A DNA stretch of 64,000 nt. Source: Minisyncoccota bacterium (GTDB lineage Bacteria; Patescibacteriota; Minisyncoccia; Phycocordibacterales; UBA6065). Under the pieces are notes generated by a model. The model saw only the letters and a list, made by a program, of their open reading frames with translations, did no database searches and had not been told where the DNA came from. Positions 3,195 through 58,350 of this stretch are shown piece by piece (within the stretch, counting starts at the first letter, position 1; each line of letters begins with the position of its first letter). The DNA is taken from positions 101,083-165,082 of the forward strand of contig DASWWW010000003.1 in NCBI GenBank assembly GCA_036400935.1, read 5' to 3'. Position numbers and translations under genes: made by a program.

Positions 3195-4955
3195 ATGTGC
3201 GGAATCATCGGAACAAACGAGAATAACGAGGCGCTGATCCGCAAAGCGGGCAAGGCTTTCGCGTACCGCGGCCCTGACGCTTCGGCGACCTTTTCCGACA
3301 AATCCGTGACCCTCGGCCATCATAGGCTTTCGATCATGGATGTCGACCCGCGTTCGACCCAGCCTTTATGCGATGCCGATAGGAAGATTTGGATCGTATT
3401 CAACGGCGAGATATTCAATTTCAAGGAAGTCCGCGCTCTTCTCGAGAGCAAATACGAATTCAATACGACGTCGGATACCGAAGTCCTCGTCTATGCTTAC
3501 AAGGAGTGGGGCAAGGACATGACCAAGCACATCGAGGGCATGTACGCCTTTGCTATTTACGATACTGACAAGCAGACGGTGCTCTTGCTCCGAGACCATC
3601 AGGGTATCAAGCCGCTTTATTACTATGCAAAGGATGGAGTCTTTGCGTTTGCCTCTGAGGTGAAAGGCCTCACGAAGCTTTTGCGCGAGAAAAAGCTTCC
3701 GCTCGATCTCGATCCTAAAGCTATCGAGCTCTATACGGTCTTTGGCTACATTCCGTCGCCGCGCTCGCTCTATAAGGACGTCTTGAAATTGCCGAAGGGC
3801 TCTTACTTCACGTACGATCTTAAGGCGAAGAAGGTTGCGGAAATGGGCAAGTCCGAATTCGCGCCCAAGAAGGTGTCGAGCGAGAAGGAATACATCGATC
3901 TCATCGAGAAGAAAGTGCTGTCGCATCTCATCGCGGACGTTCCTGTCGGCGTATTCTTCTCAGGCGGAACCGATTCGACGCTTATCGCAGCCATCTTGCA
4001 CAAGCACAAGGTCGACCTTGAGACCTTTTCCATCAAGCTCGACTACAAGACCGAGGACGCAAAGTACTTCTCGATGATCAGCGAGCATCTGAAGCTCAAA
4101 TCGAACGTCTATGATTTCGACGCGGGTACTTTGGACTCAGTCTATGAGGAGGTCATGGGCAAGCTCGACGAGCCGACCTACGACAATTCGATATTCCCGA
4201 CGTATTATGTTTCGAAGATGGCGGCTCAGAAGGTGAAGGTAGTGCTTTCGGGCGAGGGGGGCGATGAATTCTTCTATGGCTACCCGCGCAGCCTCGAATT
4301 GAGCAAGATGAAGGACTCATCTGACTACTCTTTGTCGTTCCTCGATTACCTGTATTTCGCATTGCCTCCGTTCAAGGCTAAGAATCATATCTTTCAGAAG
4401 GTTTTCAGGATATTCAAGAAGCCGATCAGCTATTACATCCTCCAGATGTCCATCGCTCGCGACAGGGCGACCCTGGCGTCTTGGAAGGCGGCAAAGAAGG
4501 AGTGCCGAGCGCGCTCGATACGGCCGCTCGCATTGGATCAGGAGCTCTATCTTGAGAACGATCTTTTGCGCAAGACCGATTTGGCCACATCGTATTCGTC
4601 AATCGAAGGGCGCGTGCCGCTGCTCGATATAGACATCTTGAGCAATCATGAGGTTGTCGAGGTTATGAAGCTTGAAGGCGGAGTGCTCAAGGCATTCTTG
4701 AAGAAGCTCCTTGCGACATATATACCGCGCGAGATGGTGTATAGGTCAAAGAGCGGCTTCGGCGTGAACATGGTCACATTCTTCGAGCGATCGAAATACC
4801 TCCGAGCCGACCTCGAGAAGGCTATTGCATTTCTCGCTGAGAGGGGCGTAAAGACCCCTCGCGTCGGGAATATCGATACTGCCATAAGGAAATACCCATA
4901 CCTGTGCTTTGCCCTGATATCCCTCTACAGGTCGATAATCAATAACGAGCGCTAG
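3195..4955 (+). CDS. asnB: Asparagine synthetase (glutamine-hydrolysing) AsnB-type amidotransferase, probably acting as a sugar amidotransferase within the glycan cluster
   Basis: N-terminal MCGIIG (class II glutamine amidotransferase Cys2) and the PP-loop SGGTDS in the synthetase domain. Confidence 0.85.
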   Translation: MCGIIGTNENNEALIRKAGKAFAYRGPDASATFSDKSVTLGHHRLSIMDVDPRSTQPLCDADRKIWIVFNGEIFNFKEVRALLESKYEFNTTSDTEVLVYAYKEWGKDMTKHIEGMYAFAIYDTDKQTVLLLRDHQGIKPLYYYAKDGVFAFASEVKGLTKLLREKKLPLDLDPKAIELYTVFGYIPSPRSLYKDVLKLPKGSYFTYDLKAKKVAEMGKSEFAPKKVSSEKEYIDLIEKKVLSHLIADVPVGVFFSGGTDSTLIAAILHKHKVDLETFSIKLDYKTEDAKYFSMISEHLKLKSNVYDFDAGTLDSVYEEVMGKLDEPTYDNSIFPTYYVSKMAAQKVKVVLSGEGGDEFFYGYPRSLELSKMKDSSDYSLSFLDYLYFALPPFKAKNHIFQKVFRIFKKPISYYILQMSIARDRATLASWKAAKKECRARSIRPLALDQELYLENDLLRKTDLATSYSSIEGRVPLLDIDILSNHEVVEVMKLEGGVLKAFLKKLLATYIPREMVYRSKSGFGVNMVTFFERSKYLRADLEKAIAFLAERGVKTPRVGNIDTAIRKYPYLCFALISLYRSIINNER

Positions 4956-17956: not shown

Positions 17957-18409
17957 TTACGCTTTTTCAAGCATTGCGCGGGCTTGCGCTTTGAGCATAT
18001 GAGCGGCCAATGCCGATTGCATATACACGAAGCGACTGTGATCACGGCATCCTTTGAGGGGAATGGGGTCACGGTATTGCGCCATGATGGCTACATGGGA
18101 GAACACTTCCATGCCTGAGAGATCAACTTTCGCGTTACCCATATCCTGTTCCGAGGGCCTATTGCTTGTCTCTGATTCCCATAGGAATGGAATAGAGATA
18201 GCAGTGCTGCCCTTCGGACATCCGCGCCTAACAGGCATGTAGCTGAGGCTCACATGGCAGAAGGGGCCAAAGAACCAATGTTGCTCGACACTGATTTCGC
18301 CTGTGGCCATTTCCAGAGGAAACAGCTTGCGAGCGATATCAGCGAGCAGGCTTACGACGACGTTGCAGGGAAGGATTAATCCTTGTGAGTTAGTGGACGA
18401 GGTGGTCAT
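17957..18409 (-). CDS. Hypothetical protein (150 aa); may be non-coding
   Basis: Only sizeable ORF in the lower-GC 17.85-18.6 kb gap. No recognisable motif and atypical composition. Confidence 0.25.
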   Translation of the reverse strand: MTTSSTNSQGLILPCNVVVSLLADIARKLFPLEMATGEISVEQHWFFGPFCHVSLSYMPVRRGCPKGSTAISIPFLWESETSNRPSEQDMGNAKVDLSGMEVFSHVAIMAQYRDPIPLKGCRDHSRFVYMQSALAAHMLKAQARAMLEKA

Positions 18410-18426
18410 TGTATTTTGTGTGTAGT

Positions 18427-18490
18427 GGAATTACTACATTTAGGCTCCGATAGGGCATAGACCCTGTCAGGGAATAAATGTAGTAATTCC
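18427..18490. repeat. Perfect 16-bp inverted repeat (GGAATTACTACATTTA ... TAAATGTAGTAATTCC) with a 32-nt spacer that itself holds a small hairpin
   Basis: Read directly from the sequence. Lies ~135 nt upstream of secA, in a divergent intergenic region. Confidence 0.6.
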
Positions 18491-18624
18491 GCGCATTTCG
18501 AAGATCTCACTGTACTGGGTATATTATACACCTATTTTATATAAAAGTCAAGTGTTTGGATTGATCCCGTATCCGTCTATATAGGGCTTCAAACCGATGC
18601 GATTACATGCTAATATAGCCCTCT

Positions 18625-21117
18625 ATGGCCACATTCCTTACGAAAATTTTCGGAGATCAGAATAAGCGAGATTTGAAGCCTTTTGAAGCACTAGTACCGA
18701 AGATTAATGGGTTCGAGCAGGCTCTTTCGGCACTTTCTAACGAGCAGCTCAAAGGAAAGACTGCCGAATTCAAGGAACGCCTGTCCAAGGGCGAGTCCCT
18801 CGATGATTTGCTTCCTGAAGCCTTTGCCGTCGTCCGCGAGGCGTCCAAGCGAACCCTCAATCAGCGCCATTTCGACGTGCAGATGATCGGAGGCGCGATC
18901 CTCCATCACTCAGGCATCGCCGAGATGCGAACCGGGGAGGGAAAGACCCTCGTAGCGACCCTGCCCGCATATCTCAACGCTCTTTCAGGAAAGGGCGTTC
19001 ATGTCGTTACCGTCAACGACTACCTCTCGCGACGAGACGCGGCATGGATGGGCCAGGTCTACGATTTCCTCGGCCTTACCTGCGCCGTCATCAATCACGA
19101 CACCGCGTATCTCTATGACCCAAAGCATACGGAGGCAGACGCGAATCGCGACGAGAACGGCTCGTTCAAGGTCGCGTACGAATTCCTCAAGCCGTGCTCT
19201 CGCAAGGAGGCGTACGTCGCCGATATCACCTACGGAACCAACCAGGAGTTTGGTTTTGATTATCTCCGAGACAATCTCGAGTACTCTCCTGAAAATCTCC
19301 GCCAGCGCGAGTGGAATTTCGCCATCGTGGACGAGGTGGACTCGATCCTCATCGACGAGGCTCGAACTCCGCTCATCATTTCTGCGGCAACGTCCGATTC
19401 TGAGGACTTTTACAAGATGTTCGCCAAGATCGCCGACACTCTCGCCCCTGAGGTCGATTACAAGATCGACGAGAAGCGAAAGGCAATCACTCTCACCGAT
19501 TCCGGCATTACCAAGGCCGAGAAGGCACTTAATGTCGACAATATCTACACCGATCGCGGTGTAAAATACGTCCATCACCTCGAGACCGCCGTTCGAGCGA
19601 AGGCGCTTTTCCATAAGGACAAGGAGTACGTCGTGCGCGAGAATGAGGTAATCATCGTCGATGAATTTACCGGACGACTCCAGCCGGGACGACGCTGGTC
19701 AGAAGGCTTGCATCAGGCCGTCGAGGCCAAGGAAGGCGCGACTATCCAGAAGGAGAGCCGCACGTTCGCCTCTATCACGTACCAGAACTTCTTCCGCCTT
19801 TACAAGAAGCTCTCCGGAATGACCGGAACGGCTCTCACGTCGCGCGAGGAATTCTTTAAGGTATACCATCTCAATACAATCGCTATCCCTACGAACCGCG
19901 AGGTCGCCCGAATCGACCGAAACGACCAGATTTTCCAGACTGAGGTGGGCAAGTTCAAGGCGATCGCCAAGAAGGTAAAGGAAGTGAACAAGAAGGGCCA
20001 GCCGGTCCTTATCGGTACGGTTTCGATCGAGAAGAACGAGCTCCTTTCGCAGTACTTGAAGCGTGAAGGCGTCGCCCACGAGGTTCTGAACGCGAAAAAC
20101 CATGAGCGCGAGGGAGAGATCGTCGCCCAGGCGGGACGATTCGGCGCCGTAACCATCGCGACGAACATGGCGGGACGAGGAGTCGACATCAAGCTCGGCG
20201 GCGTCCCTGTATCGGAAGAGGAGACCGCGAAGGTAAAGGCCGCAGGAGGACTGTTCGTGCTCGGTACGGAGCGCCACGAGGCTCGCCGGATCGACAACCA
20301 GCTCCGAGGACGAGCGGGACGACAGGGAGATCCTGGCGAGACGCAGTTCTTCGTATCGCTCGAGGACAGCCTCATGCGCGTATTCGCGACCGACATGGTC
20401 AAGAAGATGATGGGCCGATTCGGCATCGCCGAGGATGAGCCTATCGAGAACGGCATGATCACGCGATCGCTTGAGACCGCCCAGACCCGCATCGAAGGCT
20501 TCAACTTCGACGCCCGAAAGCACGTCCTCGAATACGACGACGTCATGAATCTCCACCGCAAGACCGTATACGACCGACGCCGCAAGATGCTTGTCGGCTC
20601 GGACGAGGACGTCCTCGCCGACTTCATGAGCATCGTCGATACCAACGACGCCGCCATCATGGCAGTCATCGAGTCGAAGAAGCAGCAGCTCGGCGAGAAC
20701 TTCCCGAAGGCTCTCCGACACCTCTTCCTCCAGACTATCGACATGTTCTGGGTCGAGCACCTCGAGGCTATGGACTATCTCCGCTCTTCGGTAAACCTCC
20801 GAGCGTACGGCCAGCGAGATCCTTTCGTAGAGTACAAGAGGGAAGGCCTCCAGCTTTTCAAGACCATGCTCATGTCTATCAATGCGCAGGTCATCAGCCT
20901 TCTCCCTAATTTGGGCGGCGCGGCCGCGGCAGACATGAAGCCTCTCAATACCATTGAGGCGGACGCCAAGGGCATCCTCGGATCTGAGACCGTAGCGTCT
21001 TCGGGCGACAAGCTCGGCCGAAACGAGAAGGTCATCATGGTCCGCGACGGCGTTGAGAAAGAGGTTAAGGCGAAGAAGATCGCCGACCACGAGAAGGACG
21101 GCTGGAAGATCAAATAA
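18625..21117 (+). CDS. secA: Preprotein translocase ATPase SecA
   Basis: N-terminus MATFLTKIFGDQNKRDLK..., Walker A MRTGEGKTLVATLPAYLNAL, DEVDSILIDEARTPLIIS. 830 aa. Confidence 0.95.
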   Translation: MATFLTKIFGDQNKRDLKPFEALVPKINGFEQALSALSNEQLKGKTAEFKERLSKGESLDDLLPEAFAVVREASKRTLNQRHFDVQMIGGAILHHSGIAEMRTGEGKTLVATLPAYLNALSGKGVHVVTVNDYLSRRDAAWMGQVYDFLGLTCAVINHDTAYLYDPKHTEADANRDENGSFKVAYEFLKPCSRKEAYVADITYGTNQEFGFDYLRDNLEYSPENLRQREWNFAIVDEVDSILIDEARTPLIISAATSDSEDFYKMFAKIADTLAPEVDYKIDEKRKAITLTDSGITKAEKALNVDNIYTDRGVKYVHHLETAVRAKALFHKDKEYVVRENEVIIVDEFTGRLQPGRRWSEGLHQAVEAKEGATIQKESRTFASITYQNFFRLYKKLSGMTGTALTSREEFFKVYHLNTIAIPTNREVARIDRNDQIFQTEVGKFKAIAKKVKEVNKKGQPVLIGTVSIEKNELLSQYLKREGVAHEVLNAKNHEREGEIVAQAGRFGAVTIATNMAGRGVDIKLGGVPVSEEETAKVKAAGGLFVLGTERHEARRIDNQLRGRAGRQGDPGETQFFVSLEDSLMRVFATDMVKKMMGRFGIAEDEPIENGMITRSLETAQTRIEGFNFDARKHVLEYDDVMNLHRKTVYDRRRKMLVGSDEDVLADFMSIVDTNDAAIMAVIESKKQQLGENFPKALRHLFLQTIDMFWVEHLEAMDYLRSSVNLRAYGQRDPFVEYKREGLQLFKTMLMSINAQVISLLPNLGGAAAADMKPLNTIEADAKGILGSETVASSGDKLGRNEKVIMVRDGVEKEVKAKKIADHEKDGWKIK

Positions 21118-21120
21118 TTT

Positions 21121-21687
21121 ATGATTGAAGCAATCATCGCGCAATACGGCCTCGTGGCGGTCTTCATTGGAACATTCCTTGAGGGCGAGATCGTAGTTAT
21201 CGCGGGAGGGCTTCTCGCTCGGCTCGAATTCCTTTCGTTGCCGCTCGTATTGATCACGGCATTTTTTGCGACGTTCTTGGGCGACCTGTTCTTCTTTTAC
21301 CTTGGACGCAAGAAGGGAACCGCATTCCTGGAGAAGCGCGGCCGCAAGCACTGGCGAAAGCGAGCGGAGAAGGTCCACGACCTTATTCACAACCATCAGA
21401 ACAAGATCCTCTTCGGCTACCGCTTCCTCTATGGCCTTCGCATCCCTACATTGTTCGCCCTCGGCACATCCGAGCTCTCGACCAAGAAGTTCGTCCTCCT
21501 CAATATCCTGAATTCAATCGTCTGGTCGGCTATTTTTGTACTCGGCGGCTATTTCTTCGGCGATCTCTTTACTCTTATCATCGACAACATCCATTCGTAC
21601 GAGAAGAATCTTCTCATCGGCATAGGCATCGTGGCGGTCATCGTGTGGGTGTGGTCGCTTATCAAGAATAGGGAAGAATACAACTAA
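21121..21687 (+). CDS. DedA-family (SNARE-associated/TVP38) membrane protein
   Basis: N-terminal FIGTFLEGEIVVIAGGLLA re-entrant motif characteristic of DedA proteins. Confidence 0.8.
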   Translation: MIEAIIAQYGLVAVFIGTFLEGEIVVIAGGLLARLEFLSLPLVLITAFFATFLGDLFFFYLGRKKGTAFLEKRGRKHWRKRAEKVHDLIHNHQNKILFGYRFLYGLRIPTLFALGTSELSTKKFVLLNILNSIVWSAIFVLGGYFFGDLFTLIIDNIHSYEKNLLIGIGIVAVIVWVWSLIKNREEYN

Positions 21688-21791
21688 GGGAGCCGCCTGC
21701 TTTTATCCGGGCACGCATATCCGCCTGCTGGCGGATTACTCCGCTCGGCCCGTCAGCCTGCGCGAGGCCCGAATAAAAGCATGCGGCTCCC
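21688..21791. repeat. 104-nt structured element with 18-bp inverted terminal arms (GGGAGCCGCCTGCTTTTA / TAAAAGCATGCGGCTCCC, 1 mismatch) and nested hairpins; terminator-like or MITE-like
   Basis: Directly after the dedA-like stop. Internal sub-hairpins TCCGCC-tgct-GGCGGA and CCGGGC...GCCCG. The motif CCGCCTGCT occurs twice. Confidence 0.5.
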
Positions 21792-21807
21792 CTGTGTCTC
21801 GTATAAT

Positions 21808-21836
21808 TTGACTTTAACTTATAAATAAAGTATAAT
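21808..21836 (+). promoter_or_regulatory. Consensus sigma70-type promoter TTGACT-17-TATAAT
   Basis: TTGACT (21808-21813), 17-nt spacer, TATAAT (21831-21836), in an AT-rich stretch upstream of the 21874/21957 ORF. Confidence 0.6.
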
Positions 21837-21956
21837 CATATATTAAGAATAAGCTCCTTGAATACGGTGTTGGTTGAGTTTGGAAGGAAAGAGGCAATCT
21901 GCCGTCTTTCTGGCCTCGGGCCAAGCGGATTGTTATTTTCCCACTAAACTCAACAT

Positions 21957-22725
21957 GAATGCTATTGCTTCCGATAAAGTCGTTACTGAACAAGGTGCAG
22001 ACGCGATCTACTACTTCTTTTCTGTCCCGTCCCATTACGGGGAGCGCGAACTGAAGGCGTTGGATCTCGAGCTGAACGAGAGGGCTTGTGCAGCGATCTC
22101 GCAGGATTACTCCCGCGGCATCTGGTCGTACAAGCCGGATGGCCTCGGTCTGTACGAGGCGCGCCAGCTCCAGAACCTCATGATGGGCCGTGTCGCTGCC
22201 AAGGTCGCCTTCACGAATCACCGCGTTACGCTTGTCCGCAAGGAGTTTCATTCCAACACGGGCGCCATGACGACGGAGGTATGTCTGCCAGTTAGCAGCC
22301 TCGGACGCCTCTACGTCGATCGCTCGCGCGACACGCTGTCGATGCTTACTATTTCCGGTCGCGAGGTGCGGATCGTGGATGATTCCATTCTCGACGACGC
22401 ACCGCATGGCGAAGGCGAGACGGTCGAGGTGCTCGCCTTTGAGGTCGGCGGACACTCTCAGTTAACCCACGAGCGGATCAGTCGCGAGTACGACATTCGC
22501 GGCCTTTATCCGGCGGATCCTCACTCGCTCGCGGCAGCAACCGAGTCGTCCTCGGCTAACGGGCCGCGACCGCGTTCGGTCGCGACGCACTGGATCGATC
22601 CAAAGAGCGGGCAATGGTGCCGCCTGATCGTCAGCCAAGAGCATGGCGTGAGCGCTGGCCGTACCCACGGCACTGGCATTCATTCCAGCTTTTGGCTCGC
22701 GGGCATCGCCAAAGAACGGCGGTAA
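21957..22725 (+). CDS. Hypothetical protein (about 256 aa from ATG 21957; the track ORF begins at TTG 21874)
   Basis: Long ORF with a consensus promoter upstream and a terminator downstream on the + strand. No recognisable domain. Confidence 0.5.
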
Positions 22726-22765
22726 TCCGCTCGAGTTGCAAGACTCGCGTAAAACTTCGCAAAGT

Positions 22766-22793
22766 CCGCGTCCTTGATGGCGCGGCTTTTTTA
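22766..22793 (+). terminator. Rho-independent terminator
   Basis: CCGCG-tccttgatgg-CGCGG followed by CTTTTTTAT. Confidence 0.5.
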
Positions 22794-22844
22794 TATCTTG
22801 ATTTTTGACATTTGCCCGTGGCGGGTGTTTCATAAAGGCACAGG

Positions 22845-23357
22845 TTGATCTTCGATTTTTTTATGCAAACTCTGATTGCTTTTCAGTCAGTTGCTACCGC
22901 GACTGCTGCTGCAGTCACGTCGCTTGTGGAAATTCCACAAGAGTTCGCCAGGAAAAACATCATCCATAGGGATTTTTGCCTGCTCGTGCTTGCCGGCACG
23001 AACAGCGCCCTGATCGTTAAGAGGCCTCAGGTGAAGACATGCTGCCACAAGGACGTACTATGCATTTCTCTCGTGGGCAGCGTCGTCAGGCGCAATGAGA
23101 TGATCGAGCAGGGCTGCTCCGAGTGCCTCATGCGCGCGGGCGGATTCGCGAGCTTTGATGAGTTCGACGGCTGGCTCGGTCAGATAGCAAAGGCCATCGG
23201 CGTATCCAAGATTTACCGGTCACGCGGCAGATCCGAGATTCCCCCGGGACTCCCGCGTTCGGACGCTTGGCATGTTACCGAGTCGCCTTCGAAAATGGAT
23301 CGATGGATGACTGTCCGTATTAGCTCCACGGATGTACGGCAAAGGCCGCCTAATTGA
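22845..23357 (+). CDS. Hypothetical Cys-rich protein (about 164-170 aa; TTG 22845 or ATG 22864 start)
   Basis: ORF between two + strand terminators. Contains CCHKDVLC and CSEC motifs. A TTGACA (22805-22810) lies upstream. Confidence 0.45.
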   Translation: MIFDFFMQTLIAFQSVATATAAAVTSLVEIPQEFARKNIIHRDFCLLVLAGTNSALIVKRPQVKTCCHKDVLCISLVGSVVRRNEMIEQGCSECLMRAGGFASFDEFDGWLGQIAKAIGVSKIYRSRGRSEIPPGLPRSDAWHVTESPSKMDRWMTVRISSTDVRQRPPN

Positions 23358-23372
23358 GGCGGCCTTTTTATT
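23343..23372 (+). terminator. Rho-independent terminator
   Basis: AGGCCGCC-taattga-GGCGGCCT followed by TTTTTA. Overlaps the stop of the preceding ORF. Confidence 0.6.
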
Positions 23373-23388
23373 TGGGGATATCGGTTGT

Positions 23389-24903
23389 CTACTTCACCAG
23401 AATCTTGCCCGTCATACCCTTCGGCTTCTTGATATCGAGCAGCGCGAGAACGGTAGGGGCGATGTCCGCAAGGCCGCCGGCATTGAACTCGATGCCCTTG
23501 GCGGTAATGATCGCCGGCACGGGATTGATCGTATGGGCGGTGTGCTTTTCGCCCGTTACAGGGTCTACGTTCACTTCGGCGTTTCCGTGATCGGCCGTGA
23601 CGAATGCCACGCCCCCACGAGCCTCCAGGGCCTCCAGGACGCGTCGCAGGTTGGTATCGACGGTCTCGACAGCCTTCACGATAGCCGGCACATTCGCTGT
23701 GTGTCCGACCATGTCGGGATTGGCGAAGTTTATGAAGATGAAGTTGGTTCCGGCGTTAATCTCCTCGATGGCCTTGTCCGCGATAGCTTCAGCGCGCATC
23801 TCGGGAGCGAGGTCGTGCGTCTTTACGTCCTTGCGCGAGTCGAGGAGGATGTGCTTCTCGCCCGGATAGAGCTTTTCGATGCCTCCGTTGAGGAAGTACG
23901 TCGCGTGCGGGAACTTCTCGGTCTCGGCGATGTGCGCCTGAGTGAGGCCGGCCGCGGAAACTTCCTTGGCGATCGTCGTATCGATGACGCGGGGAGGGAA
24001 GGCGATGTCGCATTTGAAGCTCTTGTCGTATTCGGTGAGGGTGACAAATACGATGTTGTCCTTCTCTGCCTTCTCGATCATCTTCTTCGAGATCATGCGC
24101 GCGCGATCGGCGCGGAAATTGAAGAAGAGAACGGCATCGTTCTTCTGGATGGGGTAGCTCTTGCCGTTCTTGTCGAGAAAGACGACCGGCTCGAGGTGCT
24201 CGTCCAAGATTCCGTCCATATGGAGGCGAGAAATGACTTCGGAAGGGATATCTCCCGGTTTGCAGACGTTTCCTTTGCATTCAAAGAGGGCCGCCTCGGC
24301 GCGTGCTACGCGGTCCCAGTTGTTGTCGCGGTCCATGGCGTAAAATCGGCCGGTCGCCGTGGCGATGAAGCCCCCGCCGATCTTCTCGAGGTCAGACTCG
24401 AGCTCGCGCAGGAACTGTGCCGAAGACTGAGGGGCCGTATCGCGCCCGTCGGTATAGACATGGATGGCGATAGTCTGGATGCCTGCGTCCTTTGCTGCCT
24501 TTACGAAGGCGACGAGGTGATCCTGGTGGGCGTGCACTCCGCCGTTTCCAAGCAGACCTTTTACGTGGAGGACGGAGTTATTCTTTTTGACGTGATCGAA
24601 AGCCTTTGTGAAAGCCGGAATCTTGGCAAAATCGCCGCTCTTGATCGATTTGGCGATGCGGACAAGGTCGGTGTCGATAACGGTGCCCGCGCCGATGGTC
24701 GTATGGCCGATCTCGCTGTTGCCCATCTGGCCGTCAGGAAGGCCCACGTCGAGCCCAGAGGCTTGGAGGAGGGTGTGAGGGTACTCTTTCCATATCTTGT
24801 CGAAGAAGGGCTTCTTGGCGGATGCGACGGCGTTATGGCTCGCGTCCTCGCGATGACCCCAGCCGTCGAGCACTATTAGTACCGCTTGTTTGAATGTTTT
24901 CAT
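23389..24903 (-). CDS. gpmI: 2,3-bisphosphoglycerate-independent phosphoglycerate mutase
   Basis: MKTFKQAVLIVLDGWGHRED...NSEIGHTTIGAG...; C-terminal metal-binding domain TADHGNAE. Start taken at MKTFKQ (24903), not the upstream in-frame ATG. Confidence 0.92.
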   Translation of the reverse strand: MKTFKQAVLIVLDGWGHREDASHNAVASAKKPFFDKIWKEYPHTLLQASGLDVGLPDGQMGNSEIGHTTIGAGTVIDTDLVRIAKSIKSGDFAKIPAFTKAFDHVKKNNSVLHVKGLLGNGGVHAHQDHLVAFVKAAKDAGIQTIAIHVYTDGRDTAPQSSAQFLRELESDLEKIGGGFIATATGRFYAMDRDNNWDRVARAEAALFECKGNVCKPGDIPSEVISRLHMDGILDEHLEPVVFLDKNGKSYPIQKNDAVLFFNFRADRARMISKKMIEKAEKDNIVFVTLTEYDKSFKCDIAFPPRVIDTTIAKEVSAAGLTQAHIAETEKFPHATYFLNGGIEKLYPGEKHILLDSRKDVKTHDLAPEMRAEAIADKAIEEINAGTNFIFINFANPDMVGHTANVPAIVKAVETVDTNLRRVLEALEARGGVAFVTADHGNAEVNVDPVTGEKHTAHTINPVPAIITAKGIEFNAGGLADIAPTVLALLDIKKPKGMTGKILVK

Positions 24904-24939
24904 ACGCGTTATTGTACAGAAAGTTATGCCCATGCGTCA

Positions 24940-24968
24940 TTGACGATGGCTTTTGCGAGTTGTAGTAT
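24940..24968 (+). promoter_or_regulatory. Sigma70-like promoter TTGACG-17-TAGTAT
   Basis: TTGACG (24940-24945), 17-nt spacer, TAGTAT (24963-24968). Sits between the gpmI start and the small + strand unit. Confidence 0.5.
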
Positions 24969-25036
24969 CTATATCCGGTTAGTCTAACTGTCGGAATATT
25001 CCAAAGTGTTCAGGAATTCAACAAGGAGATCCTTCC

Positions 25037-25249
25037 ATGCCAGCTCGTAGCGGTTTCAGCAGCAAGAACGACAAATCTGCCCCTAGCAGTCCGCAGCAAT
25101 TCCCAGACAAGATCCCTAACCCGCCGGTGCTTCTCAGGCGGGGTATGTGTTCTCGCAGCTCCCGTCCGATTTTTGCGGACGACATTGGTTCGGGAGCCGG
25201 TGTCCGTACGGATCATGGTCGCTATATGGACAGGGTGACTCGCCGGTAG
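25037..25249 (+). CDS. Small ORF (70 aa, Ser/Pro/Arg-rich) preceded by AAGGAG; alternatively part of an ~320-nt sRNA
   Basis: AAGGAG (25023-25028) is 8 nt upstream of the ATG, and SD motifs are otherwise rare in this window. Bounded by a promoter and terminator on the + strand, convergent with eno. Confidence 0.35.
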   Translation: MPARSGFSSKNDKSAPSSPQQFPDKIPNPPVLLRRGMCSRSSRPIFADDIGSGAGVRTDHGRYMDRVTRR

Positions 25250-25264
25250 CTAATACCGATACGT

Positions 25265-25293
25265 GGCCGCCATCACTGATGGTGGCTTTTTTA
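25265..25293 (+). terminator. Rho-independent terminator for the small + strand unit
   Basis: GGCCGCCATCA-ctg-TGATGGTGGC followed by TTTTTT. Confidence 0.6.
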
Positions 25294-25324
25294 TAAACGA
25301 AAGCCGCGCCCGAAGGGCGCGGCT
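25287..25324 (-). terminator. Rho-independent terminator of eno
   Basis: AGCCGCGCCC-gaa-GGGCGCGGCT (10-bp stem). A T-rich tract follows on the minus strand. Confidence 0.6.
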
Positions 25325-25338
25325 TGATTCGCTAGGCT

Positions 25339-26643
<1,305 letters not shown>

Positions 26644-30847: not shown

Positions 30848-32281
30848 ATGTCTACTTACAAAACAACTATCGGCCTCGAAATCCATGCTGAGCTCAAGAC
30901 GCAGACAAAGATGTTCTGCGATTCAAAGAACGATCCGTTCAACAGCGCTCCGAACGCCAACATCTGTCCGGTCTGCATGGGCCATCCGGGAACTCTTCCT
31001 GTCATAAACAAGAAGGCGGTCGAGTCTGTTTTGCGCGTCGGCGTGGCCGTTGGCGGCGAGCTGGCCGATTTCACCGAGTTCGACCGAAAGAACTATTTTT
31101 ATCCTGATATCCCGAAGGGCTACCAGCTCTCCCAATACAAGTATCCTCTGGTTAAGGGCGGCGAGCTCGCGGGCGTAAAGCTTACCCGAATCCATTTGGA
31201 GGAAGACACGGCCTCATCGAGCCACGATACGGGCGATTACTCGCTTGTCGACTTCAACCGCGCTGGCGTGCCTTTGATGGAGCTCGTCACTGAGCCCGTC
31301 ATCCATACCGCCGAAGAGGCGGGCAATTTCGGCCGCGAATTGCAGCTCCTCCTCCGAACCCTTGGCGTATCTGGGGCGAATATGGAGAAGGGCGAGATGC
31401 GCCTTGAGGTAAATATCTCCCTTTCCGACACTGAAAAGCTCGGCACGAAAGTCGAGGTTAAGAATATCGGCTCGTTCAAGGCTGCCGAGAAGGCGATAGC
31501 ATACGAGATCGCGCGCCATACGCAGCTTTTGAAGGCCGGAGAGAAGATTGTGCAGGAGACTCGCGGCTGGGACGACGAGAAGGGCAAGACGTTCTCGCAG
31601 CGAAAGAAGGAGGATTCGCACGATTATCGCTATTTCCCAGATCCGGACCTGCCAAAGCTCAAGATTTCGGAGATTCCTGAGTTCTCAAAGGAGAATTTGG
31701 CAAAGTCATTGCCTGAATTGCCATGGGAGAAGCGCGCTCGCTACGCCGCTATCGGCCTCAAGCCTACCGACGTTTACATATACGTGACTATTCCTGAGGT
31801 CGGCGCCTTCTTTGAGGCGACCGCAAATGCCCTCGGCGACAGGAAGGAGTCGGTCCTGCTTGCTTCGAACTATATCTCTACCGATATTCTCGGCCTTATC
31901 AAGAAAAAGCACGGCGAAGGCCACGAGAATGAGATCGCGCGCCTGCCGTTCGCTCCGGCCCAGTTCGCGCAGCTCATCGGAATGATCGAGAAGAAGGACG
32001 TGTCGTCGCGCGGCGCCAAGGACATCCTCGGATTCATGCTCGAGTCGGGCGGCGAGCCGATGAAGATCGCTACCGAGAAGCAGCTCATACAGAAGAGCGA
32101 CGAGGGCGCCGTAAAGAAGATCGCCGAAGAGGTGATCACGGAAAATCCAAAGGTCGTCGAGGACTACAAGAGCGGAAAAGTCGCGCTTCTCCAATTCCTC
32201 ATAGGGCAGGGCATGAAGAAATCGAAGGGCTCTGCGAATCCTGAGGTCCTCAAGGCAGCATTCCTTGCCTTGCTCTCATAA
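30848..32281 (+). CDS. gatB: Asp-tRNA(Asn)/Glu-tRNA(Gln) amidotransferase subunit B
   Basis: MSTYKTTIGLEIHAELKTQTKMFCDSKN...ICPVCMGHPGTLPV, the GatB N-terminal signature. Confidence 0.92.
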   Translation: MSTYKTTIGLEIHAELKTQTKMFCDSKNDPFNSAPNANICPVCMGHPGTLPVINKKAVESVLRVGVAVGGELADFTEFDRKNYFYPDIPKGYQLSQYKYPLVKGGELAGVKLTRIHLEEDTASSSHDTGDYSLVDFNRAGVPLMELVTEPVIHTAEEAGNFGRELQLLLRTLGVSGANMEKGEMRLEVNISLSDTEKLGTKVEVKNIGSFKAAEKAIAYEIARHTQLLKAGEKIVQETRGWDDEKGKTFSQRKKEDSHDYRYFPDPDLPKLKISEIPEFSKENLAKSLPELPWEKRARYAAIGLKPTDVYIYVTIPEVGAFFEATANALGDRKESVLLASNYISTDILGLIKKKHGEGHENEIARLPFAPAQFAQLIGMIEKKDVSSRGAKDILGFMLESGGEPMKIATEKQLIQKSDEGAVKKIAEEVITENPKVVEDYKSGKVALLQFLIGQGMKKSKGSANPEVLKAAFLALLS

Positions 32282-39961: not shown

Positions 39962-41071
39962 ATGAAAAAATACATATACATTGTCATTGCGATCGTCGTG
40001 ATTATAGCGGTATGCGTTTCGGTAAATAGGGTAGATAAGGATACTGCCGTGGCAGAGCGGCCAATAAAGATCGGCGCGGTTATCTCGCTCTCGGGTCCAG
40101 CGGCTGCATTCGGCGAATACGCGAAAAGCGGCATGGAGCTTGCGGCAAAGGAAATAAATTCCAAAGGCGGAATGAAGGGCCGAACTGTCGAGATCGTATT
40201 CGGGGACGACAAGACCGATCCGAAGTCAGCCGTGTCGGCCTTCAATAAGCTGTCGAGCGTAGACGGCGTGGACGCGTACGTCGGCGGGCTCTGGGATTTT
40301 ATGGCTCAGCCGCTTTTGCCGCTCGCCCTTTCAAGCAAGACCGCTTTCATATCGCCGTCGCAGTTCAGAATTGAAGGCGCTTTCGACCTTAACGAGCAGT
40401 CGTTCGTGATGCTTACCGATTTTGATAAGGTCATCTCGAGCCTTAGGCCATTCTTGGAGAAAAGCGACGTGAAGAAAATCGCTGTTGTCCATTTTGCTTC
40501 GGGTTTTGGCAGGGAGATCGCCGAAACGATCGATTCGATAAGCCAGGATTTGGGCAAGGGAAAGATTATCGATGAGCAATACGCAGCGATCGGGACAAAT
40601 GACTTCAAGACCACGATCGCAAAGCTCAAGGCCGCCAATGTCGATACCGTCTTTCTCGATATGGTCGACATTGACCCGATAACGTTTCTCAAACGATCAA
40701 AGGAGATGGGATTCGCTCCAAAATTCATCACATACAATGGCGCGCTCGATTCGTTCAAGCAGACCGATATGCAGCTCGCCGAAGGGGTGTTCATTCTTGA
40801 TTGGGAATTCGCGGGCCCTCGCTTCGATAAGCTCTATCAGGACACGTACGGCAGGATCGCGTCCAAGTCCGTGAGCAAGGCATATGACGCCGTATATATC
40901 CTGGCTGAGGCAATAGCGAATACCAACAGCAGGGAAGATGTCGCCGCATATGTAGAGTCGCATTCGTTCGAAACCATGAATGGCACGATCCGGTTCTTGC
41001 CAACGCACGCGGTTGAGACGACGGATGTGTTGCTGAAGGTCGTTAGGGCGGGGAAGGCGATGGCTATTTAA
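39962..41071 (+). CDS. LivK-family ABC substrate-binding protein (SBP2)
   Basis: TM anchor plus IKIGAVISLSGPAAAFGEYAKSGMELAAKEINSKGG. Confidence 0.8.
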   Translation: MKKYIYIVIAIVVIIAVCVSVNRVDKDTAVAERPIKIGAVISLSGPAAAFGEYAKSGMELAAKEINSKGGMKGRTVEIVFGDDKTDPKSAVSAFNKLSSVDGVDAYVGGLWDFMAQPLLPLALSSKTAFISPSQFRIEGAFDLNEQSFVMLTDFDKVISSLRPFLEKSDVKKIAVVHFASGFGREIAETIDSISQDLGKGKIIDEQYAAIGTNDFKTTIAKLKAANVDTVFLDMVDIDPITFLKRSKEMGFAPKFITYNGALDSFKQTDMQLAEGVFILDWEFAGPRFDKLYQDTYGRIASKSVSKAYDAVYILAEAIANTNSREDVAAYVESHSFETMNGTIRFLPTHAVETTDVLLKVVRAGKAMAI

Positions 41072-41801
41072 GCATCTCCCTCAGTTTCTCCTCGATATTC
41101 GTTGCGACGGTCTGATCTTGAATCAATCGGAAGGTAGAATCCATCATTTTGGCAATCTGCGCGTCATGGATCTCGATGGCGAATTTCCTCTCCATATTTA
41201 CGAGGATGGTTCTTGGCCCGTGGAGGAATATTTGCGCCGCATGATCGAAATAGGACGGGTCGAATAGACTTACTTTGAATGGCCTGCCAGTATAGGAATC
41301 GACCCAGTCCTTGCCGAAGAATTCCGCATGATCACGATAGCATTCAATCGAGCTGATTACCTCTGTAACGATTTTATTTCTCTTGAGCGAGCGGTTGGCG
41401 TTCACTATCGGCTCCTCGCCGATAGCTTCGCGCCATGGCTTGCCGACCTTGTTGCCGAGGAGCGATTTGAGGCGGTGCTTCGGGTCGCGGGCGAATTTCT
41501 CGAAAAGTTCGATGATGTCTTTCGGGTCGGTGTATATGCGGATCGAGCGCATCGGCTTTTCATTTTCGGGCTGGACGAATGCGATATCTAGCTTATTCCA
41601 GTATGTTTTCTTGCCTTTCTTGCTCGCTGCTACAAGTCCGCGCTTCTTGAGACGATCAAGGGCGATGTATGCCGTGGGGCGGGGGATCGAGGTCTTTTCG
41701 GACAGACTGAGGGGGGTTTCGTCTGTGCCGAAGTGCTTGAGGATAGCTTTTTCGTTCTTGCTGAGGAGCAGCGCCCTCTCGAAATCTGCTGGTAAATTCA
41801 T
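41064..41801 (-). CDS. TrmB-family transcriptional regulator (module 3)
   Basis: wHTH (LSEKTSIPRPTAYIALDRLKKRGLVAASKKGKKTYW). Confidence 0.7.
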   Translation of the reverse strand: MNLPADFERALLLSKNEKAILKHFGTDETPLSLSEKTSIPRPTAYIALDRLKKRGLVAASKKGKKTYWNKLDIAFVQPENEKPMRSIRIYTDPKDIIELFEKFARDPKHRLKSLLGNKVGKPWREAIGEEPIVNANRSLKRNKIVTEVISSIECYRDHAEFFGKDWVDSYTGRPFKVSLFDPSYFDHAAQIFLHGPRTILVNMERKFAIEIHDAQIAKMMDSTFRLIQDQTVATNIEEKLREMLK

Positions 41802-41826
41802 GCCGTCATCATAGCTGGACGCTATA

Positions 41827-41849
41827 AAATGTCAATAATCCTGACATTT
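41827..41849. promoter_or_regulatory. Candidate TrmB operator palindrome AAATGTCA-ATAATCC-TGACATTT
   Basis: TGTCA-N7-TGACA in the divergent region between TrmB3 and SBP3. Confidence 0.45.
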
Positions 41850-57977: not shown

Positions 57978-58008
57978 AAAAGCTCCGCCTTTAGGGCGGA
58001 GCTTTTCA
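57978..58008. terminator. Rho-independent terminator hairpin. Serves the + strand membrane-protein gene and abuts the 3' end of the minus-strand RNase P RNA.
   Basis: AAAAGCTCCGCC-tttag-GGCGGAGCTTTT. Confidence 0.55.
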
Positions 58009-58350
58009 TTTGCTTGTACCGATAAGCCGAATTCTGTTGCCTTGCGGCATGGCGGTCATTTATCTGGGATCGCCGTCGCCGGCGACCTCGAGCGGCACTT
58101 CATCCGGGTTTGACCCGGGATGACACGGCCTTGCACATACGTAAGGATTTTGCCGTTGCACCTTCATGTCTCCATGAAGCTTATCCCGAAGGATACCGAG
58201 CCCTTTCGGGCTCCGGCGTCTCTGTTCGCACCTCTGGAATTGCTTCCGACGGGCGTTACCCGCTACGATCCTCCGCATTGCTGCGGATGTGTTCGGACTT
58301 TCCTCCCCAAGGCCGAAGCCGTGGAGCGACTGCCTGGTACAGGCAACCTA
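58008..58350 (-). ncRNA. rnpB: RNase P RNA (bacterial type A); ends approximate
   Basis: Minus-strand transcript contains GGGGAGGAAAGUCC (P4 5' strand, + coords about 58295-58308), GGGUAACGCC (P10/P11 region), GUGCAACGGCAAAA, and ACAGAAUUCGGCUUAU (P4 3' strand, + coords about 58021-58036). P1 pairs UUGCCUGUACC with GGUACAAGCAA. Confidence 0.85.

Follow-up and report, generated by a model that had tools for sequence, protein, structure and literature searches.

Background

Diversity-generating retroelements (DGRs) occur in great abundance in bacteria belonging to the candidate phyla radiation (CPR); adenine-specific mismatch between a variable region (VR) and its template region (TR) is their diagnostic signature. 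The prototype DGR variable proteins, Mtd of Bordetella phage BPP-1 and TvpA of Treponema, have a C-type-lectin (CLec) fold; for the small CPR targets that lack recognisable domains, we know of no established function. Roux et al. (2021) described a CPR-restricted DGR clade 2 whose targets have no recognisable domains, and suggested that DGR targets are modular and recombine (PMC8144416). Remote targets, which are not adjacent to their DGR, have been documented in a CPR set (Wu et al. 2018, PMC5758913), and DGR targets carry, 4-34 bp downstream of the VR, a GC-rich hairpin or cruciform whose 4-nt loop is GRNA (PMC3240598). Here, we characterize a two-gene unit in a 64,000-nucleotide stretch of contig DASWWW010000003.1, hereafter the window, which comes from a Candidatus Paceibacterota (CPR/Patescibacteria) metagenome-assembled genome (MAG). 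The unit lies between dedA and gpmI and consists of a promoter, two open reading frames (ORFs) of 256 and 164 aa, and two terminators; an earlier sequence-only reading had delineated it in this way, and all of its coordinates hold. We consider it probable that the first gene, ORF1, is a fixed, orphaned and chimeric binding protein that was once a DGR target and now sits in an accessory insert.

Results

The C-terminal domain of ORF1 and a family of DGR variable proteins

ORF1 (21955-22725, + strand) corresponds to hypothetical protein VGE35_03440 and ORF2 to VGE35_03445 by exact-sequence look-ups. Neither protein matched Pfam, NCBIfam, PADLOC or PHROGs, the last giving no sign of a phage or prophage gene, and a word-indexed homology search returned only the query for each. 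PDB sequence searches with the single proteins and with a family profile yielded chance matches only, among them a cupin (E=0.46) and NtcA (E=1.1), which we rejected. The sequence-only reading had stated that ORF1 has no recognisable domain; this is true of curated libraries, but an exhaustive HMMER search (phmmer, 1.84 billion representatives) found 212 remote homologues at E≤1e-3, and these lead to DGR variable proteins. They fall into two blocks without overlap, aligning with aa 7-110 or with aa ~116-254 of ORF1. Matches to aa 7-110 only (P0003, E=6.9e-17; P0011, 7e-12; P0119, 1.7e-5) are proteins of 101-144 aa, and the remaining matches listed are mostly ~200-aa proteins whose C-terminal two thirds align with aa ~116-254. 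No protein among the 212 matches spans both parts except ORF1 itself.

The C-terminal domain (aa 116-254; 22300-22716, +) is homologous, though divergent, to a CPR family of DGR variable (target) proteins; a profile search added 310 further members to this family. Named members come almost entirely from Patescibacteria MAGs (Zambryskibacteria, Paceibacterota, Andersenbacteria), and no member was found in IMG/VR. Pfam searches with all 121 family members revealed no recurrent family, no FGE-sulfatase and no DUF1566. We used the family profile to fetch metagenome loci with a family gene, in which this gene is followed by a 3′ untranslated region (UTR) with many CTTNG motifs and a terminator, and then by a promoter, a conserved structured RNA, a TR-type stretch, Avd and a reverse transcriptase (RT). 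The TR-type stretch translates as an Asn-rich copy of the target protein's C-terminus; the minus-strand gene past it matches bAvd (PF22296)/DivGenRetAVD, and the next encodes a ~340-aa RVT_1 reverse transcriptase. Eleven ungapped VR/TR pairs of 95-106 bp end approximately at the stop codon, with gapped pairs in two further loci, and 155 of the 168 mismatches in the ungapped pairs lie at TR adenines. Given these adenine-biased mismatches and the adjacent Avd and RT genes, the C-domain family is therefore a family of DGR variable proteins. The Patescibacteria MAG names of its members and the lack of any in IMG/VR agree with the CPR-restricted DGR clade 2 (PMC8144416).

A hidden Markov model (HMM) built solely from the 12 members whose VR/TR pairs are verified or gapped matched ORF1 at E=1.6e-13 (Z=1.8e9), with the alignment reaching the last model position, and ORF1 was its only match among 467 window ORFs. 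AlphaFold2 with the family alignment modelled aa 110-256 at a predicted local distance difference test (pLDDT) of ~85-95, and left the N-terminal part, which has no alignment depth, uncertain. Foldseek with the C-domain model returned nothing significant, only weak Link-module matches; the order of the predicted secondary-structure elements may be compatible with a CLec-like alpha/beta domain. Hydropathy reaches a maximum of 0.82 (Kyte-Doolittle, KD(19)), and ORF1 has no transmembrane (TM) segment and no signal peptide.

In around half of the family loci that come with 2 kb of flank or more, no TR lies nearby although the WWFAG(V/L)RK scaffold is intact (L085, L087, L089, L090, L091, L095, L117, L121 and L136-L138, with L148, L152 and L163 also listed), which suggests remote or recently orphaned targets. 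Decaying cassettes, with RT fragments or the RNA element only, are found in L089, L148 and L152. One member lies outside a CPR-like context, on a contig labelled Methylocystis sp. (L090, GC ~0.64), where its neighbours are Replic_Relax, a DnaG-type zinc ribbon and a Gabija-like pair of AAA_15/OLD-TOPRIM and UvrD genes; this setting suggests that it is carried on a mobile element.

Chimeric organization of ORF1

The N-terminal domain (aa 1-110; 21955-22284, +) belongs to a rare family of stand-alone proteins of 100-144 aa, which are encoded by complete small genes with their own terminators and with an ORF1-like promoter and leader hairpin. In locus L171 (P0003), a complete 144-aa gene with a terminator has the promoter TTGACT-17-TAcAAT and ORF1's leader hairpin, and loci L172-L174 have a similar promoter/leader design. 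The sigma-70-type promoter of ORF1 itself, TTGACT-17-TATAAT (21808-21836, +; TTGACT at 21808-21813, TATAAT at 21831-21836), matches the consensus at 11 of 12 positions, in line with the sequence-only reading, which had pointed it out. It is one of only three sites that score 11/12 or better when both strands of the 64-kb window are scanned, compared to a mean of 0.37 in 100 shuffles. The promoter design recurs in loci L171-L174, as it does in those of the DGR-target family.

Downstream of this promoter, the 5′ leader of ORF1 (~112 nt; 21843-21954, +) contains the motif AGCTCCTTGAAT at 21852-21863 and a long hairpin at 21873-21954. The hairpin extends as far as the base that precedes the AUG, and the purine-rich GGAAGGAAAGAGG, the only Shine-Dalgarno (SD)-like stretch, is buried in it; the leader folds at -43.1 kcal/mol (z=-4.0). 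Its arms are conserved with L171, where GTTGAGTTTGGAAGG and CACTAAACTCAAC are identical, the inner stem carries pair-preserving changes, changes in both arms keep the pairing, and nucleotide identity is above that of the coding part. The sequence-only reading had given ORF1 a length of 256-283 aa, and both starts exist, the longer form beginning at TTG 21874. In L171, however, the frame equivalent to the 81-nt extension differs from that of the gene and runs into a stop, which marks the extension as a conserved, non-coding hairpin; the start of ORF1 is therefore ATG 21955. The 5′ arm of the hairpin opens a TTG-initiated frame (MSLEG...; L171 365-457, window 21874-21954) that in L171 forms a separate 30 codons whose stop overlaps the main ATG (ATGA) and in the window runs into ORF1 in frame; a leader peptide would be conceivable.

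DGR-target genes of the family have a conserved 5′ leader of ~146 nt (L091-L170; for example, L143 ~3700-3853, L141 2926-3068 and L089 7863-8003). Its 5′ part comprises a consensus promoter with an extended -10 (GGTGTATAAT), followed by AGTTCTTTGATA and ACTTGCGA. Its 3′ part comprises the hairpin GGTCATAGCSAAAAG...CTSGCTATGACC, in which a few of the pairs are compensatory, then another hairpin, CCTCCTCGG..AGAGGG, and, around the start, an invariant AAGGAKGAYGMCATG. R1, a covariance model of this family leader, recovers non-seed family loci at E from 2e-20 to ~1e-2 and gave no match in the window at E≤1, and we therefore rejected the ORF1 leader as a member of this RNA family. Because the N-domain relatives share ORF1's promoter and leader, R1 finds nothing in the window and the homologues form two separate blocks, ORF1 is a chimera, whose promoter, leader and N-domain derive from the small-protein family and whose C-domain derives from a DGR target.

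A probably orphaned and fixed member of the family

The VR-equivalent stretch of ORF1 (aa 222-253; 22618-22713, +) is degenerate by family alignment. ORF1 keeps 29 of 55 conserved columns outside the VR and 7 of 15 within it, compared to at least 82% and at least 87%, respectively, in every other member (120). Adenine-free TR codons are essentially invariant in true VRs; 2-3 of 16-17 are identical in ORF1 when compared with four verified TRs. Among scaffold residues that do not vary in any other member, WWF has become FWL and W has become I, and there are a three-codon deletion and a one-codon insertion. At the population level, the 1,701-bp unit is base-for-base identical across four independent run assemblies, and the 90% cluster of ORF1 holds one member sequence from 11 contigs, compared to 14-37 variant sequences per cluster for some canonical members.

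We searched the window for the other parts of a DGR. No RT or Avd was found in the 64 kb when three RT and three Avd sequences served as tblastn queries, and HMMs built from 13 RTs and 18 Avds and run on the 467 window ORFs gave best E values of 0.52 and 0.16, respectively. An Avd-like match at ~31028-31276 (-) (tblastn E=0.034; HMM E=0.16 at 30923-31213, -) is antisense to a 477-aa gene and was discarded as spurious. Using blastn-short, we found no repeat of the 3′ part of ORF1 in the window that could serve as a TR. An adenine-tolerant 60-nt scan, in which positive controls scored 60/60, found no window position with at least 60% identity (36/60), the printed examples scoring 19-25/60. DGR RNA motifs matched the window at chance level only. 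A small hairpin, CGAGUU-GCAA-GACUCG (22732-22747, +), begins 7 nt after the ORF1 stop; its position and 4-nt loop resemble the element downstream of DGR VRs (PMC3240598), while its stem is 6 bp (vs 7-10 bp) and its GCAA loop does not fit GRNA. By analogy, it is possible that this hairpin is a relic of that element.

ORF1 could instead be a live remote target, its last ~33 codons being rewritten from an unsampled, lineage-specific TR by a DGR elsewhere in the genome. It does belong to a bona fide DGR target family in which many members have no adjacent TR, remote targets are documented (PMC5758913), a hairpin follows the stop at 7 nt, and several VR-equivalent codons are NNC, as AAC templates would give. 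Nevertheless, with no TR, RT or Avd in 64 kb, with scaffold residues substituted that are invariant elsewhere, and with zero nucleotide differences among the four assemblies and a single sequence in its cluster, we regard this explanation as unlikely.

The insertion between dedA and gpmI

The unit is surrounded by housekeeping genes, as the sequence-only reading had noted: secA (18625-21117, +) and dedA (21121-21687, +; 188 aa, VTT domain only) on one side, and gpmI (23389-24933, -), convergent with the insert and followed by eno, on the other. The closest relative available, L175 (GCA_964368565.1), was reached via a 90%-identity cluster mate of the window gpmI and shares 93%, 88% and 89% amino acid identity with the window in secA, dedA and gpmI, respectively. 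The nucleotide alignment runs at 80% through secA-dedA, breaks at the dedA stop, and resumes at 77% from the gpmI 3′ end. Between dedA and gpmI lie 1,717 bp in the window vs 483 bp in L175, where the gap codes for an unrelated 136-aa protein with hydrophobic segments (a membrane protein) and the unit is not present. In more distant relatives (60-70% gpmI identity), a DedA(VTT)-PAP2 fusion directly abuts gpmI. The dedA/gpmI junction is therefore a variable slot, and the 1.7-kb segment reads as a lineage-specific accessory insert within it. The DedA(VTT)-PAP2 phosphatase fusions are 419-444 aa long and convergent on gpmI (L006 7539-8873, L014 7501-8760, L016 7596-8873), and in the window and L175 the gene comprises the 188-aa VTT part alone. 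In the closest genome-collection relative, L005 (83% gpmI identity), the contig stops 190 nt beyond gpmI and is hence uninformative on the insert.

Codon usage of both ORFs is atypical, which together with the L175 comparison upholds the likely acquired or accessory context proposed in the sequence-only reading. ORF1 and ORF2 score 0.11 and 0.04 bits/codon, respectively, compared to 0.48 ± 0.12 (minimum 0.18) for housekeeping windows; spurious ORFs score up to 0.20, and both ORFs are inside this range. Of the six frames, the annotated one clearly scores best for both ORF1 and ORF2. The GC comparison with the flanks that had also been proposed showed no clear anomaly in content (0.60-0.62 in the ORF1 region vs 0.53-0.61 in the flanks) or in skew.

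These codon scores raise the possibility that the insert is decaying debris, with ORF1 a non-functional relic of a DGR cassette and ORF2 a chance ORF. ORF1 is the family's most degenerate member, ORF2 has no homologue and no proper promoter, and degenerate cassettes with RT fragments do exist in the family (L089, L148, L152). Yet the ORF1 frame is intact over 256 codons, preceded by a near-perfect promoter and a conserved leader and followed by a clean terminator; its C-domain has a predicted fold at pLDDT ~90; the annotated frame stands out in both ORFs; and the ORF2 region shows no trace of TR, Avd or RT. We thus give the debris explanation little credence. The accessory island itself is real and beyond chance, and most likely it is not a defence or toxin module.

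ORF2

ORF2 (22863-23357, +) would encode 164 aa from ATG, or 170 aa from TTG 22845, and is the Cys-rich ORF with its own terminator that the sequence-only reading had placed here: it has six Cys in the pattern CCHx4C...CxxC (CSEC). The word-indexed search against 5.8 billion clusters found only ORF2 itself, and there was no match in PDB, in four HMM libraries or in the 170 fetched loci. Its N-terminus is hydrophobic (KD(19)=1.64 at aa 4-22) and could be a signal anchor. A single-sequence AlphaFold2 model reached a pLDDT of 41, and a fold search with this poor model was uninformative. We dropped an ASCH/PUA-like domain, an impression from the sequence pattern, as it had no Pfam support at E≤1, and we rejected the region as a DGR cassette remnant given its lack of similarity to the 170 loci. 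In favour of a gene are the best frame of six, the strong terminator and the patterned Cys/His; against it are the codon score in the spurious range and the lack of a proper promoter. From its sequence features, ORF2 is a probable lineage-specific gene, possibly membrane-anchored and metal-binding, and it has no detectable relation to the ORF1 family and shows no sign of cooperation with ORF1.

The sequence-only reading had leaned towards a defence or toxin-like module, and a two-gene defence or toxin-antitoxin-like pair would suit the strong promoter, the accessory location, the uncharacterised proteins and the family member beside Gabija-like and relaxase genes (L090), but we find it very improbable: there are no PADLOC, Pfam or NCBIfam matches, each ORF has its own terminator and the ORF1 terminator and 137 nt between them leave no translational coupling, relatives of ORF2 stand beside ORF1 homologues in 0 of 170 loci, and DGR biology accounts for the ORF1 family.

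Transcription signals and other features of the window

An inverted-repeat hairpin of 104 nt (21688-21791, +) lies directly 3′ of the dedA stop codon. It has 25-nt arms that are 92% complementary, an RNA fold of -66.7 kcal/mol (z=-6.96), and neither a U-tract nor a target-site duplication. The sequence-only reading had the unit bracketed by this element, but it is a single copy on the upstream side only: we found no second copy in the 64-kb window, and it is not present in L175. Its single copy led us to reject a repeated mobile element. The hairpin may be a terminator, an insulator or an insertion scar, and probably ends or insulates secA-dedA transcription.

The ORF1 intrinsic terminator (22766-22793, +) has a 7-bp GC-rich stem (22766-22785) followed by CTTTTTTAT, and that of ORF2 (23341-23372, +) has an 11-bp stem (23341-23367) followed by TTTTTATTT, with the stop codon inside the loop. 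Between them, the TTGACA box noted earlier is present at 22805-22810 (+), but it was not reported by the promoter scan and lacks an acceptable -10: TTTCAT, 17 nt on, has no A at position 2. Any promoter belonging to ORF2 itself is therefore weak, if there is one.

Searching 20500-25500 against Rfam at E≤1 gave no relevant match, and the ORF1 leader is thus no known cis-regulatory RNA family; a Phe_leader match at 23302-23372 (E=0.41) was rejected as merely the ORF2 terminator. At gathering thresholds, RNase P RNA is the only Rfam family in the whole window, a bacterial class A RNA at 58007-58345 (-) with 127.5 bits. The 64 kb yielded no tRNA genes. The third near-consensus promoter, TTGACA-16-TATGAT (41808-41835, -), is just upstream of a TrmB/IclR-type helix-turn-helix regulator of 245 aa (41064-41801, -).

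RNA elements in the DGR-target family

The family leader had no Rfam match in the region, the window or eight family loci, and it is possible that it constitutes a new cis-regulatory RNA. A second copy (R1 E=6.6e-10) occurs at L138 1148-1247, before a different 202-aa ORF ~200 nt downstream of the family gene, and the leader is therefore not confined to one gene family.

Two further elements lie downstream of the target genes. Between the target-gene terminator and the TR, and beginning just past the promoter, is a structured RNA made up of GGYAGTAGGYGAATA, a hairpin, and then CCGAAYCCAGTATCC(R)TRC. The hairpin is variable in length and sequence and shows compensatory changes (L139 ~1360-1580, L169 ~4602, L152 ~4531, L140 ~1072, and others). 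Rfam gave no match for this RNA, which presumably forms the 5′ part of the template RNA of the DGR. From stop codon to terminator, the family 3′ UTRs contain CTTAG/CTTGG/CTTTG arrays and mini-hairpins such as GGAC-UYYG-GUCC (L139 1246-1300, L087 8619-8680), and the motif that comes first in them, TAGTTCTY, resembles the AGTTCTTTG motif of the 5′ leader. These CTTNG-type arrays may be the DGR target-recognition region.

A promoter-motif-hairpin design is found upstream of ORF1, of an ORFan at 17957-18409 and of the N-domain family genes, and, as a 146-position RNA, upstream of most CPR DGR-target genes. We tentatively raise the idea, on which we would not insist, that a near-consensus promoter, an AG[CTA]TC[CT]T[TC]GA-type motif shortly after the transcript start and a long hairpin reaching the start codon or its vicinity make up an undescribed leader class that gates variable or accessory binding proteins in Patescibacteria. 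If so, ORF1 documents a leader cassette recombining with a DGR variable domain to give a new fixed binding protein. The ORFan encodes 150 aa on the minus strand between murB and secA and has no Pfam match. Its unit (17957-18551, -) starts with TTGACT-17-TATAAT and an extended -10 (18551-18523), followed by AGATCTTCGAAA (18507-18496) and a long hairpin immediately ahead of the ATG. The ORFan is not in L175, where murB and secA are 147 nt apart.

Discussion

Several considerations weigh against our view that ORF1 is a fixed and orphaned former DGR target. The window covers 64 kb of a genome of roughly 0.7-1 Mb, DGRs can act on remote targets (PMC5758913), and, where the flank is long enough, around half of the family loci likewise lack an adjacent TR, so that a distant, divergent TR is possible. 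The assemblies give the dominant allele, and minority VR variants would escape them. In codon usage, ORF1 scores no better than spurious ORFs, and its expression is a prediction. The chief uncertainty is that a cognate DGR may be present elsewhere in the genome.

With the former-target view of ORF1, the following sequence of events can be proposed. In canonical family members, the final ~33 codons, the VR, are rewritten from the adjacent TR by Avd and RT with adenine-specific errors. In the lineage of ORF1, a DGR variable domain would have been joined to another promoter, leader and N-domain, after which its scaffold drifted and its sequence became fixed in the population. The sigma-70-type promoter would drive strong transcription, the leader hairpin would gate translation by occluding the start region, and the transcript would end at its own terminator. 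The product would be a soluble two-domain protein, without signal peptide or TM segment, whose C-domain displays a fixed binding surface, making it an ordinary binder of frozen specificity. ORF2 would be a separate gene, weakly promoted or expressed by read-through.

ORF1 would thereby illustrate the fate of a DGR target once it is away from its retroelement. For annotation, hypothetical protein VGE35_03440 is tied to a defined family, and the dedA/gpmI junction is recognised as a slot that varies within this lineage. The most novel by-product of the analysis is the leader RNA conserved among CPR DGR-target genes, and together with the pre-TR RNA it could bear on the expression and priming of CPR DGRs.

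Comparison with known systems places ORF1 at different distances from each. Leaders that sequester the start, such as RNA thermometers and riboswitch expression platforms, are similar by analogy, in that the ORF1 hairpin extends up to the AUG with the SD-like stretch buried; unlike them, the ORF1 leader has no Rfam family, ligand pocket or thermometer motif identified. As in Mtd and TvpA, a C-terminal variable region would run up to the stop codon and be followed by a small hairpin (PMC3240598). The element order of the C-domain model may also be compatible with the CLec-like domain of these proteins, whereas ORF1 has no detected sequence or Foldseek similarity to them, is much smaller, and is not phage-borne. 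Like remote or orphan DGR targets (PMC5758913), ORF1 is a target-family gene away from any RT or TR within the window; however, the VR of remote targets matches the TR at all non-adenine positions, and the orphan-looking family members retain the WWFAG(V/L)RK scaffold.

The closest described systems are the CPR DGR targets themselves (PMC8144416, PMC5758913). ORF1 differs from them in having no TR, Avd or RT within 64 kb, in keeping ~50% of family-conserved columns, in showing no population variation across assemblies, and in having its N-terminal helical region and leader RNA swapped for those of another gene family. It resembles them in aligning at aa 116-254 over the entire C-terminal domain, including the VR-equivalent end, in having no TM segment, signal peptide or Pfam domain, and in standing alone as a gene that has a consensus promoter, a long structured leader and a terminator of its own. 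This combination would make ORF1 a concrete example of the modular target recombination suggested by Roux et al. (2021).

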